Counted from the first letter of the whole stretch, positions 9,140 to 57,517 are shown. The stretch is DNA of 63,963 nucleotides, filler included, from Octopus bimaculoides (GCF_001194135.2; 5 parts of 5 records of this genome joined end to end with filler, not necessarily neighbours in it); one strand, 5' to 3'. Made by a program: numbers and translations. The notes: generated by a model not told the origin, from the sequence alone.

Positions 9140-9353
9140 TATTTACATTCGACGGATATTTGTCCTCATTTTGTTTGTTGTTAACACAACGTTTCGGCTG
9201 ATATACCCTCCAGCCTTCATCAGGTTGATGAAGGCTGGAGGGTATATCAGCTGAAACATTGTGTTAACAACAAACAAGGTGAGGACAAATATCCGTCAAA
9301 TGTAAATAATGTAAATAATGTACATAATTCCTCATCTCTTAAATATAGAACTG
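9140..9353. mobile_element. head-to-head inverted pair of an HHR-bearing repeat (same family as 31.5-32.0 kb)
   Basis: Arms of about 83 bp (9140-9222 and 9226-9308) with a 3-nt spacer. The tail CATAATTCCTCATCTCTTAAATATAGAACTG is shared with the 31.5 kb copy. Confidence 0.85.
9183..9225 (-). ncRNA. minimal type I hammerhead ribozyme motif (extra A after A9)
   Basis: CUGAUGA-A-GGCUG(GAGGGUAUAU)CAGCC-GAA-ACGU-U-GUGUU. The core is intact, but the 5' strand of stem I is truncated by the inversion junction. Confidence 0.6.
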
Positions 9354-10074
9354 AATCCTTCTACTATTCTGAATCCCATATTGGCCAGTCTTCTTTTGAT
9401 GCTGTCATTTGAACATTACCATTGCTTATTTCTTTTTGCCAGATTTAAATCCTTTCCTTTGTTTGTTTGTTTCTCTGGTGTCTTTTCTTGTATTTTCTCA
9501 ACTTTTCTCTTGACACTTGTTTATTCAGTTCTGCTGCTTGTCTTATTTATAACTGAGTTGACTTTGATATTTTTCATTTGTTTATCATAACAAGGGTTTT
9601 ACGACGATAATCCGTTGTTTTCGTCTCACGTTTCCCTGTTGTTTTCAACCGTTTCAGCGAGAGATTTAACTTGGTTGCTCTTTAAAGTTTTAATATCATA
9701 GCTTTATGTTTATTGTTCAGTTAGTGTAGTGTGAAGATCAGTGTGGTAATGATCGGTTATACTGTTGAGGAACCGGATTGATTTGTTCTTGAAGTAAAAT
9801 AGCATCTTTCTTTCCGACTGCAAGTCAGTTTGAGCTTGTTTCTTAGCATTCTGTAATGATCATGCTTGAAAATCTCAATTACTTCAATGTTTTAAGTACT
9901 GTTTAGTAAAGATTGTTTGCTAACATAACATGGCAGTGCTGGTTTAGGACAATCTTTGCTACAAAGTACTGTTGCTGAATATCTCACGTTGTGAGATTTA
10001 AAAATAGTAATTTTCTAAGTAGTTTTTTGTTGATGATAATGTAAGGTATTGCGATGAACGTTTTGTAGTTTGAA

Positions 10075-10470
10075 CAGGGACAGACAAAGGGATTAAGTCG
10101 ATTACATCGTCCCCAGTGCATAACTGGTACTTATTTAATCGACCCCAAAAGGATGAAAGGCAAAGTCGACCTCAGCAAAATTTGAACTCAGAACGTAGCG
10201 GCAGACGAAATACCGCTGAGCATTTCACCCGGCGTGCTAACGATTCTGCCACCTCGCAGCCTTTGCTCTGCAAAATGTCATGTTTCTACACACCGAAGCT
10301 GATGCGCCCGAAATATTGGTTTCAAATTTTGGCTCTGGTACTTATATTATCGACCCCGAATAGATAAAGGTAAAATCGACCTCGACGGAATTTGAACCCA
10401 GAATGTAAAGACGGGTGACATGCCGCGAAGCATTTCGCCCGGCGTGCTTTCGATTCTATCATGTCACCGC
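10075..10470 (-). mobile_element. two tandem SINE family A copies
   Basis: Two bodies, at about 10075-10262 and 10310-10470. Confidence 0.9.
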
Positions 10471-11374
10471 CTCGATGTTTCCAAAATACTGAAAAAATAA
10501 AAATATATATTCTACAAGAACTATTTTTTTCACCACATCAAGGAAATGAAACTGCTTATGTAAGCAAAAGCAACGACGACGATGACGACGGCGACAACAA
10601 CAACAACAGCAACAACAACATAAGGATCATTGGTCCATTTCAATATGCCTGCTGTTACTGGTAACATCAGAACTCGGAGACTTGGGGAGCGTGGTAGGAG
10701 TTTTACTTCTGCCTGATAATACAACTCTGAGTGCCTGCTGGGAGATATTCTAAACTATTTCCCCCAACAAAGTATAATATTCATCATATATATATTCGTA
10801 CTATATACATAATGCATATATACATCTCTCTCTCTCTCTCTCTCTCTCTCTCTCTCTCTCTCTNNNNNNNNNNNNNNNNNNNNNNNNNNNNNNNNNNNNN
10901 NNNNNNNNNNNNNNNNNNNNNNNNNNNNNNNNNNNNNNNNNNNNNNNNNNNNNNNNNNNNNNNNNNNNNNNNNNNNNNNNNNNNNNNNNNNNNNNNNNNN
11001 NNNNNNNNNNNNNNNNNNNNNNNNNNNNNNNNNNNNNNNNNNNNNNNNNNNNNNNNNNNNNNNNNNNNNNNNNNNNNNNNNNNNNNNNNNNNNNNNNNNN
11101 NNNNNNNNNNNNNNNTATATATATATACATACATGCATACGCACCATATACATAATACATATATACATATCTATCTATCTATCTATCTATCTATCTATCT
11201 ATCTATCTATCTATCTATCTATCTATCTATCTATCTATACATACATGTGTGTCTGTGTGTCCGTGTGTGTGCAATAGCTCTGTATTAGATTTGTGAGCAG
11301 TGTTCTAATATGATTTACAACGTCTGAAAGTATATTAGTAGCATTGTTCCAAGTATGTGACTGGTACTGCAATG

Positions 11375-11585
11375 TTGGTTTCAAATTTTGGCACAGGGTC
11401 GGCATTTTCGGGGGAGGTGGATAAGTCGTTTACATCGATTCCAGTGTTCCCTTGGTACTTATTCTATAGAGCCACAAAGGATGAAAGGCAAAGTCGACCT
11501 TGGCCACAATTTGAACACCGAACATAAAATCAGGAGAAATACCACCAAGCATATTTCCCGGCGTGGTTACGATTCTATCAGCTTT
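11375..11585 (-). mobile_element. SINE family A, diverged
   Basis: GGATGAAAGGCAAAGTCGACC body. Confidence 0.8.
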
Positions 11586-11681
11586 AAGCGGTAATGTAAT
11601 ATTATGTAGGATGTTTGTACGGGTAACAGTATGTAACAACAGAACACTGGGAGCAGTCCTGTAATACGTGTTAAGGGCAAG

Positions 11682-54610: not shown

Positions 54611-54619
54611 ACAAGATTC

Positions 54620-55150
54620 TTTTTTTTAGGGAAGATTTAGGGAAGCTCGTAAATGAAACTTCCTCTGTCCACGCCACTTGTCGTTTATCTAAAAGAAGGT
54701 CCCTCGACTTGGGTTGATACAGCTTGGCATCACTACCAGAGCCCAAAAAACGGAACAGGTACCGCAAGACAGCTTTCGCGAGCTTCTGACCTCTCCACAC
54801 AATCCACCATCTTAGCGATTCCGAATCGGAAAAAAAAATACAAAATAGTTGATCTCAGCTGTTGGTTCTCGTCTTCCCTTGCGACGATGTCTGTTCATCA
54901 TACACGATTCCACGGCGTAGTTACATCTTCAAACGCCGGAGTTGTTCGACCTTGTTGTATACCTCCTCAGTTGAAGCTAGGAACGTGGATATCTAATTGC
55001 AGTTGCTTTTCGACATCGGAAACGACCTCCACCCTTGAGACGACGTGTGCTCATAACACTTGCTATTGGACGTATATATGCAAATCCAACTCCTTTGTCT
55101 TTGCATTGTCCTATATGAATTTTTGGTCCTTGCGGCCAATAACGTAATGG
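54620..55150 (-). pseudogene. probable Ty3/Gypsy pol (RT end and RT-RNase H connection) remnant
   Basis: VL*AHVVSRVEVVSDVEK..L..HVP (cf. YLGHVVS..GV..DPEK..AI...P), then VLRYLFRFLG...DLLLDK..VAWTEEVSF (cf. VRRFLG...LL.K...W..E...F). Confidence 0.5.
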
Positions 55151-56019
55151 AGAAAATATAATTAGTAATATTACTTCTATTCATACAATTATTATTATTA
55201 TCATCATTATTATTATTATTATTATTATTATTATTATTACTAACATTATTAACAACATCATCATACTCATCATCGTCCGCACAGTTCTTGTCATGTTATT
55301 AACGGTTTATGCGCTTGGAATTACCATTGAAAATTCAATCTTGTTAATAACGTTTCATCGGAAGCCAGTTTGTTTTTGATCTGAGATATATGTAGAAAGA
55401 TTTATTTCTGTTTTTTCTACGGAGGGGGAGCAGCTTTCATCGGTTATCTCATTAATGGCGCTTAATTAGGTTGAGAGTGGTCATATATCAAAATATTCTT
55501 TCGAGATAGTGGTGGCCTTTTTTCACAGTGTTGATATGGAATATGTATGCGTTTATATACGCGCATATACGCATGGGAATATAATATATATATATATATA
55601 TATATATATATATATATATATATATATATATATATAAGAACACAGAACTATATCCAAACGTTCTTGAACATAGAATGGTCGAATGGTTCAGGAATTCGTT
55701 TTGTAATATGGGGGTCGCGCGTTCGTTCCAACTGTATGGATTCTTAGGCAAATTTTATTTTTTGATACTTTTGTCCGCGTGAAATTGGGTAGATGGCAAC
55801 TGTTTGAAAGCAAATCGGATGCGATATACCCGTAATTCGAAAGTCCAACTTTGCTACATACTTCGTAATTTGGTGATTCTATCTGGGTATAGCTTTAAGG
55901 GTGTACATGGCTGCGTTCAAATACTGAACCATGAGTGTGTGTTAAAGTGATGTTCAGATAGGGAAGACGGAGGAGGCGAATGTAGACTTGGCCTGCTAAT
56001 TAGCTGGTCAGTAATCTTC

Positions 56020-56240
56020 AATTTCTTTATTGCCCACAAGGGGCTAAACATAGAGGGGACGAACAAAGGGGTTAAGTCGATTACATCGACCCCAGTGCGT
56101 AACTGGTACTTAATTTATCGACCCCGAAAGGATGAAAGGCAAAGTCGACCTCGGCGGAATTTGAACTCAGAACGTAACGGCAGACTAACTACCACTAAGC
56201 ATTTCGCCTGGCGTGCTAACGTTTCTGCCATCACGCCGCT
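56020..56240 (-). mobile_element. SINE family A, young, with 15-bp TSD
   Basis: TGGTCAGTAATCTTC occurs at 56005-56019 and 56241-56255. Confidence 0.95.
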
Positions 56241-57410
56241 TGGTCAGTAATCTTCGAAATTCTTCAGATGTAAAAAGAAAAAAAAACAAGTGTGAGTGGA
56301 GAAAGGCGCTGATAGCATTAGGGATGGCTATGGAATGGCTGACATCTAATGAAAGAGAAAGAGGGAGAAAACGAGAAAGAGAGAAAGAGAGAGGGGAGTG
56401 AGAGAGAAGTGAAACGTAAATAAAATAGGTGGAAGTAGACCAGTCAATAAATGAATAAGTTACAGAATAAGTGGTTATTAAGCCAGTGGTAATTATAGTT
56501 GCTAGTACCATCATCATAATCGTCATCAACATCATCATCATCATTGTCATCGTCTCATCACTGACATCATCATCATCATCGTTTTCTTCTTCTTCCTTAT
56601 CGCCATCATTACCTTTATCATTATCATCCCTTCTTCATCATCACCATCATCTCAGTAATCATCACCATCTCAATAATCATCGTCGTCGTCGTCGTCGTAC
56701 TCGTCATCGCCATCATCATTATCACCATCCAACGGGAAGTATTTAATCGTGAAATTGGTAATATGTGTATAATTACAATTTACTGAAAATAAATTTATGA
56801 GGAAAAAAATATTTTAAATTAGAGAGAGAATGGAATAAAGAATAAAAAATGGGAAATGAATATGTTTTGAAGAACTGATAGAAGAATTGGAAAATGATTC
56901 GAAATGTGGTGATTACTTTTATTTGATCTCATCAGAGTCATTCTTTTGTTCACTTGTTTGTTTCAGTCATAGGAATGTGGCCAAGCTGGAGCAGAGCCGT
57001 AAAAGGATTTCAGTATCTGTTTTAAGTGTTACGTATTTTATCGGCCTACTTACATGGATATAGACACAACACCGGTTAGCAAGTGGTAGTGGCGGAAGAC
57101 CACAGACGCAAAGACATGCACACACACGCACATACACACACACACACACACACACACACATATATATATATATATATATATATATATATATATATATAAA
57201 GTCAGCCGGTATATATATATATATATATATATATATACCGGCTGACTTATATATATATATATATACACACGAGGAGTGCAGACCCAACCTTCTGAGTTCT
57301 TTCACAGGGCTTAGAAAAACTGAAGGATTGCTGCGAGGGGAATATGTTGAATAAAGTCATGTACGTGTGAGAGAAAGAGATAGAAAATGGAATTCACAAA
57401 ATTCATTATT

Positions 57411-57517
57411 AATCACTACGATCGTTTCGACCCATTGTGCAGCGATCCTTCGCGGGTGAGATGCTGTACAAACAGCTGTGGTGCATCATAGGTGAAGATG
57501 TGTCTCGTCAGGTGACT
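57411..57517 (-). ncRNA. type I hammerhead ribozyme with canonical core
   Basis: AGUCAC-CUGACGA-GACACAU(62 nt)AUGGGUC-GAA-AC(GAUC)GU-A-GUGAUU. Stem I has 6 bp, stem II pairs 6 of 7, loop III is palindromic, and the site is GUA. Confidence 0.8.

Follow-up and report, generated by a model that had tools for sequence, protein, structure and literature searches.

Hammerhead motifs in the window

The stretch of DNA analysed here, referred to below as the window, comprises 63,963 nucleotides (nt) from Octopus bimaculoides (GCF_001194135.2), five parts of five records having been joined end to end with filler; it is microsatellite-dense, AT-rich scaffold DNA with an N count of 4806. An earlier note on this DNA had described ten minimal type I hammerhead ribozyme motifs, borne by about six unrelated families of short repeats that we term A to F. 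All ten motifs were found, at the positions described, to have hammerhead anatomy, and in every case the order was that of type I: stem I, core, stem II, GAAA, self-complementary stem III, UH and stem I again. Three further copies, all damaged, were identified at 9226-9266 (+), 31895-31940 (+) and, as a 3' half, 37533-37587 (-). The families have nothing in common outside the core that blastn could detect, so that they may indeed be called unrelated; five of them (A, B, C, E and F) are convincing, and D is possibly a sixth, uncertain because a canonical stem II is not clear in it and an insert of 57 nt is present. On sequence grounds we conclude that the hammerhead motifs are real.

The statement that each motif has every hammerhead feature held for the general anatomy, but only B and copy 1 of family F (F1) passed the strict descriptor given below with a perfect core. 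The CUGANGA and GAAA core with an NUH triplet is perfect in B, in F1 and in the majority sequence of family A, carries one substitution in C and in E, and is inconsistent between the two arms of D. An extra base after A9, together with G10.1-C11.1 and closing stems I and II, was found in A, B and E; stem II is 2-3 bp long in C and in F consists of 3 bp closing a long loop, and D does not form the stems looked for. Stem III is short and palindromic in all six families. In the homodimers predicted for A1L, B, C, DR and F1 stem III is intermolecular, and the full double-hammerhead fold was predicted only for B, where it is the minimum free energy structure of the homodimer.

The motifs were compared with chance expectation using a strict descriptor (stem I of at least 4 bp, no more than one core mismatch, stem II of at least 3 bp, self-complementary stem III and NUH) that was written post hoc, when the motifs were already known. 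It found five sites in the window, namely B, both arms of C, copy 2 of E and copy 1 of F, against a mean of 0.45 (maximum 2) in 40 third-order Markov simulations. When a perfect core was demanded two sites were found, 24233-24280 (B) and 57411-57517 (F1), against 0.025. A looser descriptor, used first, was not discriminating (6 against 2.2 and 3 against 0.83 for window and simulated DNA). An Rfam scan of the whole window gave no family at gathering score; narrow scans by E-value at B and at D, E and copy 2 of F (F2) found no hammerhead family, and E-value scans returned only microsatellite and hairpin noise among the matches listed. Differences in stem III between F1 and F2, and between the arms of D, are compensatory in appearance, but they are expected from CpG decay and were not counted as covariation.

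Family B has an intact hammerhead at 24233-24280 (+), with a 4-bp stem I, CUGAUGA, a 7-bp stem II, an 8-nt palindromic stem III, GUA and H17 at 24276. Family C is a head-to-head pair on both strands (35075-35236) whose arms are 97% identical and whose left end is lost in an N gap and whose right end is at (TA)n; its hammerheads at 35105-35150 (-) and 35160-35205 (+) each have an 8-bp stem I, GUA and the core variant U4C. Family D likewise forms a head-to-head pair (36815-37330, both strands), with arms 81-83% identical around a 145-nt unique interior. Its hammerhead-like motifs are at 36890-36977 (-) and 37170-37257 (+), with A6G in one arm and GUG at the cleavage triplet in the other. The interior at 37003-37147 contains a GC-rich nested hairpin (z -2.0 on the + strand, 9 of 200 shuffles being equally stable) without an Rfam match.

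The two copies of family E are 78.5% identical and share the core variant A6U. Copy 1 (37669-37801, +) has its hammerhead at 37692-37728, with a damaged stem II, and copy 2 (42455-42589, -) at 42529-42564, with an ACGU palindrome and GUA. Copy 1 of family F (57375-57517, -) has a hammerhead at 57411-57517 with a 6-bp stem I, CUGACGA, a stem II holding a structured loop of about 70 nt, an 8-nt palindromic stem III, GUA and H17 at 57417; copy 2 (37533-37587, -) is 5'-truncated, retains only the 3' half of the ribozyme and abuts (TA)18. This truncated copy (-) and copy 1 of E (+) stand head to head across the single (TA)18 run within 37533-37801. Just upstream of F copy 1, a 23-nt match to the 3' end of family A at 57537-57559 (+; E 8e-5) may represent what is left of an A copy after extreme truncation.

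Structure and abundance of family A

Family A is represented by two insertions. The first (9140-9353) consists of a left arm at 9140-9225 (-) and a right arm at 9226-9353 (+), both truncated at the ribozyme core, with a tail on the right arm only. It is flanked by a 12-bp repeat (9128-9139 and 9354-9365) in which 10 of 12 positions are alike. The hammerhead at 9183-9225 (-) has a perfect core, a 6-bp stem II, an ACGU palindrome, GUU and H17 at 9188, its stem I being reduced to 2 bp by the inversion junction.

The second insertion is longer. Its + strand begins with a 75-nt tRNA-like head at 31712-31786, in which the A box (+8) and GTTCGA (+53 to +58) lie in tRNA register; by box consensus this is the sole such pair in the window. 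An (AAT)n(AAC)n array and a linker of about 49 nt (31787-31894, +) separate the head from the hammerhead and 3' segment at 31895-32011 (+). The hammerhead itself occupies 31895-31940, with H17 at 31935 and a core that is mutated in this copy, and the 3' segment contains 9-nt repeats and an A run. To the left lies an inverted, 5'-truncated arm (31496-31713, -), which begins within the final 4 nt of the head and runs through the array into the body; it carries a tail and a hammerhead at 31595-31640 with damaged stems II and III. A 12-bp repeat, identical at 12 of 12 positions (31484-31495 and 32012-32023), flanks the whole. Without its tail family A is about 290 nt long, and it is non-coding, its translated frame finding no protein.

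We found that 14 sequencing runs from five organisms contain 64-74% of the words of 31500-32010. Contigs from four of these runs, representing four organisms, were mapped on 31700-32140, leaving out the (AAT)n array at 31780-31855. Against flank depths of 46, 7.9, 54 and 15.6, summed contig depth peaked over the head at 3.1, 0.43, 3.2 and 0.92 million, 5-7 x 10^4 times the flank, and over the body at 9.7, 1.9, 10.2 and 4.8 million, 2-3 x 10^5 times the flank. The suggestion that ribozyme-bearing elements are a major component of the genome is thus upheld for family A, with its depth of 10^4-10^5 times flank, but in the window itself hammerhead-bearing segments total only about 2.2 kb, or 3.7% of non-N bases. 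In each run 57-81 contigs ended at 31712, marking the 5' boundary of the head in all four. The loose letters of these contigs finished, again in all four runs, in the reverse complement of the first 6-9 bases of the head, their overall agreement being low (0.43-0.47).

The majority letters in the four runs restore an intact family A core, with A6 and A9 at 98-99% and C11.1, a CpG site, at 73-82%. Position N7 varied by 10-16% in all four runs, with a second letter at 13% in one of them, and the other variation listed lay at one loop II base (7-10%) and, within the stem III palindrome, at its CpG (10-15%); listed changes of at least 10% fell on N7, CpG sites and loop II. Covariation, which the earlier note had named among its tests, is shown only for A-type relatives in other animals, described below.

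Arrangement of the copies and a probable link to Penelope-like elements

No tandem array covers any hammerhead motif in the window, and no head-to-tail unit holds one. All four loci with two copies (9140-9353, 31496-32011, 35075-35236 and 36815-37330) are head-to-head inversions with outward-facing ribozymes on opposite strands. Loci that had been described as two copies do contain two motifs each, but these are the inverted arms of single insertions and not tandem copies. One transcript of such a pair would contain one sense ribozyme and its antisense, so dimers in cis are impossible; read-through RNAs are predicted to fold as long hairpins of -127 to -290 kcal/mol. Inverted pairs were found in A (two loci), C and D, and are not shown for B, E and F.

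At both family A loci a tail of about 40 nt is present on one arm only, the right arm in one and the left in the other. The 12/12 and 10/12 flanking repeats were equalled or beaten by 0.1% and 1.2%, respectively, of 5000 random flank pairs, the flank windows having been chosen by ourselves. Of 13 element ends, six are no more than 3 bp away from (TA)4 or longer, against 3% of positions, which is weak evidence as several ends were set by eye at the microsatellite. An inverted 5'-truncated copy, a 30-40-bp tail at one end, a hammerhead near the 3' end and a bias towards microsatellites make up the insertion signature of Penelope-like elements (PLEs) as given in PMC8557442, and the tail has been attributed to two internal start sites of reverse transcription (PMC11167929); for these and the other papers cited by accession, our statements refer to the passages drawn on here.

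Coding sequence was sought around the motifs in several ways. None of 73 frames scanned with Pfam, out of 285 candidates, was PLE-like. The segment upstream of the B hammerhead, 23910-24131, has relatives elsewhere: its frame found three (48-65%) that lack Pfam families and one spurious plant repeat. A second frame, searched for homologs and profiles, gave nothing, and three endonuclease profiles built from metagenome PLEs found no match near a motif, the best (E 0.034) lying on a microsatellite. An open reading frame (ORF) for reverse transcriptase (RT) and GIY-YIG is expected to be missing from short 5'-truncated copies. Because no coding remnant was detected beside the motifs, the PLE origin of B to F rests on their architecture.

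A scan of metagenome contigs for a core of family A type, with stem I unspecified beyond one base, returned at least 123 stretches, 80 of them with long flanks. Stem I pairs over at least 3 bp in 18 of the 27 distinct variants, compared with 5.6 after partner shuffling, and none of 2000 shuffles reached 18. Among the matches listed, 31 of the 69 with at least 300 nt upstream have a PLE endonuclease end upstream on the same strand, within 100 nt in 30 cases; downstream it was found in 2 of 77 matches listed, and 13 have it inverted. Two of these loci with A-type cores, L081 and L082, contain both RVT_1 and GIY-YIG frames. It can be seen that the link to PLE-type minimal hammerheads drawn in the earlier note is borne out both by these upstream endonuclease ends and by PMC4209133, where minimal hammerheads are reported to occur by thousands per genome in many families, mostly singly, with some opposite-strand pairs. 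Outside the core, no A-type metagenome locus resembled the octopus families by blastn, and exact family A patterns had 0 matches in the metagenome and prokaryote collections. Matches to a generic core in viral contigs (13) and to a B-type core in prokaryote genomes (16) had no blastn similarity to the window families and were taken as chance.

Four metagenome loci (L049, L060, L063 and L091) have open frames of about 400 amino acids, without a Pfam match, that start about 50 nt downstream of the hammerhead. As L075, L081 and L082 have the same ribozyme variant and carry PLE RT or GIY-YIG frames, this suggests two-ORF PLEs.

Other repeats were noted in the window. A dispersed repeat that is far commoner there than the hammerhead families is represented by 56150-56300 and 18 other blastn matches (for example 440-529, 11682-11770 and 49063-49152), which are 70-92% identical to each other and in which no hammerhead was seen; presumably it resembles a common octopus short interspersed nuclear element (SINE). 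A fragment at 62568-62822 (+), resembling a long interspersed nuclear element (LINE), is 96% identical to part of a 1201-amino-acid O. bimaculoides protein named retinoblastoma-associated A-box protein, the gene model of which seems to take in a piece of repeat. Broken remnants of Tc1/mariner transposases lie at 35665-36543 (+; Pfam HTH_Tnp_Tc3_2 and DDE_3) and 33474-33707 (-; HTH_48). Near-perfect inverted repeats without hammerhead motifs, at 42849-42967 beside an N gap and 57187-57259 around (AT)n, gave miRNA-like Rfam matches below threshold, and at 59434-59960 a 268-bp unit occurs twice (96% identity) on either side of a short N gap, probably as an assembly duplication.

Origin of the repeats and comparison with known systems

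The explanation that we favour, and consider probable, is that the repeats are the 3' ends of several PLE families, 5'-truncated, often head-to-head and left by the PLE RT/GIY-YIG protein, with family A being a tRNA-headed SINE that has a borrowed 3' end. Judged by its sequence, family A is likely to be a PLE-mobilised SINE. We lean slightly towards the fuller statement that it is a SINE with a tRNA promoter, ranking among the most abundant octopus repeats and mobilised by PLEs rather than LINEs, whose source copies keep an intact hammerhead even though cleavage would sever the promoter from the 3' end that the RT needs. Families B to F may be plain 5'-truncated ends of ordinary autonomous PLEs; the description of the elements as non-autonomous is supported only for A, with its tRNA-like head.

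Under this explanation a PLE protein would nick A/T-rich or microsatellite DNA, and reverse transcription would have two alternative starting points downstream of the ribozyme, making the tail optional. It would then halt early and a second, inverted copy would be joined. The ribozyme may be carried along because it lies within the segment used or bound by the PLE protein. In family A, RNA polymerase III would transcribe head, array, ribozyme and tail (31712-32000 has no T4 run), and the PLE protein would copy the transcript in trans. From the palindromic stem III, source RNAs are predicted to need dimerisation or the aid of a protein for cleavage, and the genomic copies in the window, unable to dimerise in cis, are decaying and probably either inert or buried in long hairpins. 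Minimal hammerheads are reported to have low activity, and only as multimers (PMC4209133); ribozyme mutants of a PLE still insert, and cleavage appears only with protein (PMC11167929).

Several observations weigh against the favoured explanation. The Pfam, profile and homolog searches found no PLE coding remnant beside any of the six families, and no autonomous octopus PLE partner was found, the search for one having consisted of the exact family A pattern scans of the metagenome and prokaryote collections. The metagenome matches listed are redundant and come from few host species. The head is not called as a tRNA by ARAGORN or Rfam, only 87-94% of depth at position 10.1 supports G, and summed contig depth is not copy number, an excess of 10^4-10^5 still being plain. 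Tail and flanking repeats are established for family A only.

An alternative that we regard as unlikely treats family A like the others: each of the six families would be no more than the 5'-truncated end of an autonomous PLE, and the tRNA-like head with its (AAT)n array would be a separate simple SINE in this one insertion. The array was skipped in mapping, so no contig bridging head and body is reported; the two are seen joined in a single insertion, its inverted arm included. The head occurs once in the window and reaches just 19-32% of the body depth. However, that inverted left arm comprises the last four bases of the head, the array and the body, indicating that the copied template contained all three. 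The sole flanking repeat also encloses the whole unit, and the contigs ending at the first base of the head show a short inverted head copy in four runs. Less probable still is a LINE-mobilised tRNA SINE, possibly octopus OK, OR1 or OR2, whose body includes a PLE-derived hammerhead segment. It would fit the 12-bp flanking repeats, the 16-nt A run that one end carries in the manner of LINE-copied SINEs, and the 11.6% of the O. vulgaris genome attributed to SINEs, mostly unclassified (PMC13282606). Against it, both A insertions are head-to-head with a tail at one end, and the A run is missing at three of the four ends.

The retrozyme hammerheads to which the earlier note also likened these motifs raise a further alternative, in which the families are non-LTR (long terminal repeat) retrozymes spreading through ribozyme-processed circular RNAs and the window copies are stray monomers. 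Retrozyme families do leave monomers and derive from the pseudo-LTRs of PLEs (bioRxiv 10.64898/2026.07.22.740005), and mussels have thousands of them (PMC7229834). In the window, however, no motif lies in a head-to-tail unit and the pairs are divergent on opposite strands, so that no transcript would contain two sense ribozymes; the folds are of the minimal PLE type, with an extra base before stem II, and the 5' ends are ragged. We give this alternative very little weight, and the likeness to retrozymes is not supported. Chance matches in repeat-rich DNA are hardly credible as an explanation of the motifs as a whole. The undiscriminating loose descriptor, the empty Rfam scans and the failure of D to fold as a hammerhead would be in line with them, but not the excess under the strict descriptor, the intact majority core of family A or the covariation of stem I among its relatives. 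For A, B, C, E and F chance is ruled out, and D is the one family for which it is a live option.

We conclude that families B to F add members to a known class, the scattered PLE ends with minimal hammerheads, and that the multi-family picture is ordinary; family A probably represents a new variant. The usual partner of a SINE is a LINE. If our explanation of family A is correct, a tRNA-headed SINE with the 3' end and insertion marks of a PLE would add a partnership for SINEs. Family A, if a PLE-mobilised SINE, could also explain some of the numerous octopus SINEs left unclassified (PMC13282606). What PLE hammerheads do has been stated to be unclear (PMC8557442), and a SINE that keeps the fold without an ORF or tandem layout would allow one to ask directly whether it is catalysis that selection acts on or no more than a shape bound by protein, its 10^4-10^5 copies then being a natural experiment on the purpose of these ribozymes. 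Frequent head-to-head copies would, we infer, supply long double-stranded RNA in the octopus lineage, which is known for heavy A-to-I editing.

No paper returned by the literature searches describes, as far as its listing or the passages drawn on show, octopus hammerheads, a PLE-mobilised tRNA SINE or a SINE-PLE partnership; family A may already be listed in Repbase, Dfam, paper supplements or the 1994 description of octopus SINEs, which lay outside the search. The word hammerhead occurs 0 times in the 2026 O. vulgaris repeat annotation and in a cephalopod repeat survey, and in a giant squid paper 235 Rfam hammerheads are counted but not analysed. The octopus tRNA-derived SINEs, reportedly OK, OR1 and OR2 and said to have been described by Ohshima and Okada in 1994, have a tRNA-derived head and high copy number like family A. 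OR2 is listed as a CORE SINE (PMC4758252).

The minimal hammerheads of metazoan PLE pseudo-LTRs (Cervera and De la Pena 2014, PMC4209133) share with the window motifs the type I order, short stem I, palindromic stem III and an extra base between positions 9 and 10.1, and they too fall into many unrelated families per genome, mostly as single motifs with opposite-strand pairs 100-700 bp apart. In contrast to them, U4C (in C), A6U (in E) and long stem II inserts (in D and F) are not among the variants described in the passages drawn on, and no ORF was found beside the window copies. With insertions of endonuclease-bearing (EN+) PLEs (Penelope/Poseidon, Neptune and Hydra; Craig et al. 2021, PMC8557442; Frangieh et al. 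2024, PMC11167929) the window copies have in common 5' truncation, an adjacent inverted copy, a 30-40-bp tail at one end, a ribozyme within about 50-120 nt of the 3' end and (TA)n nearby. They differ in that no RT or GIY-YIG sequence was detected in the window copies, so that no clade can be assigned, and in the polymerase III-type head of family A.

Non-autonomous PLEs of Chlamys such as MRC1 (PMC8557442) and non-LTR retrozymes (PMC7229834, bioRxiv 10.64898/2026.07.22.740005) are likewise non-coding, share their 3' end with PLEs and probably borrow proteins. They form head-to-tail arrays, and no tRNA-derived head is mentioned for them in the passages drawn on, where 'tRNA' occurs 0 times in bioRxiv 10.64898/2026.07.22.740005 and 'SINE' 0 times in PMC8557442. 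The closest case to family A is Schistosoma SMalpha, which, with Sjalpha (PMC6765202, PMC8490949), also combines a polymerase III-type promoter and a type I hammerhead in a short non-coding repeat. Those repeats are tandem, and an active ribozyme releases them from multimers, so that the promoter comes to stand at the 3' end, whereas family A is dispersed and has its promoter at the 5' end, a minimal ribozyme of PLE type and the insertion marks of a PLE.

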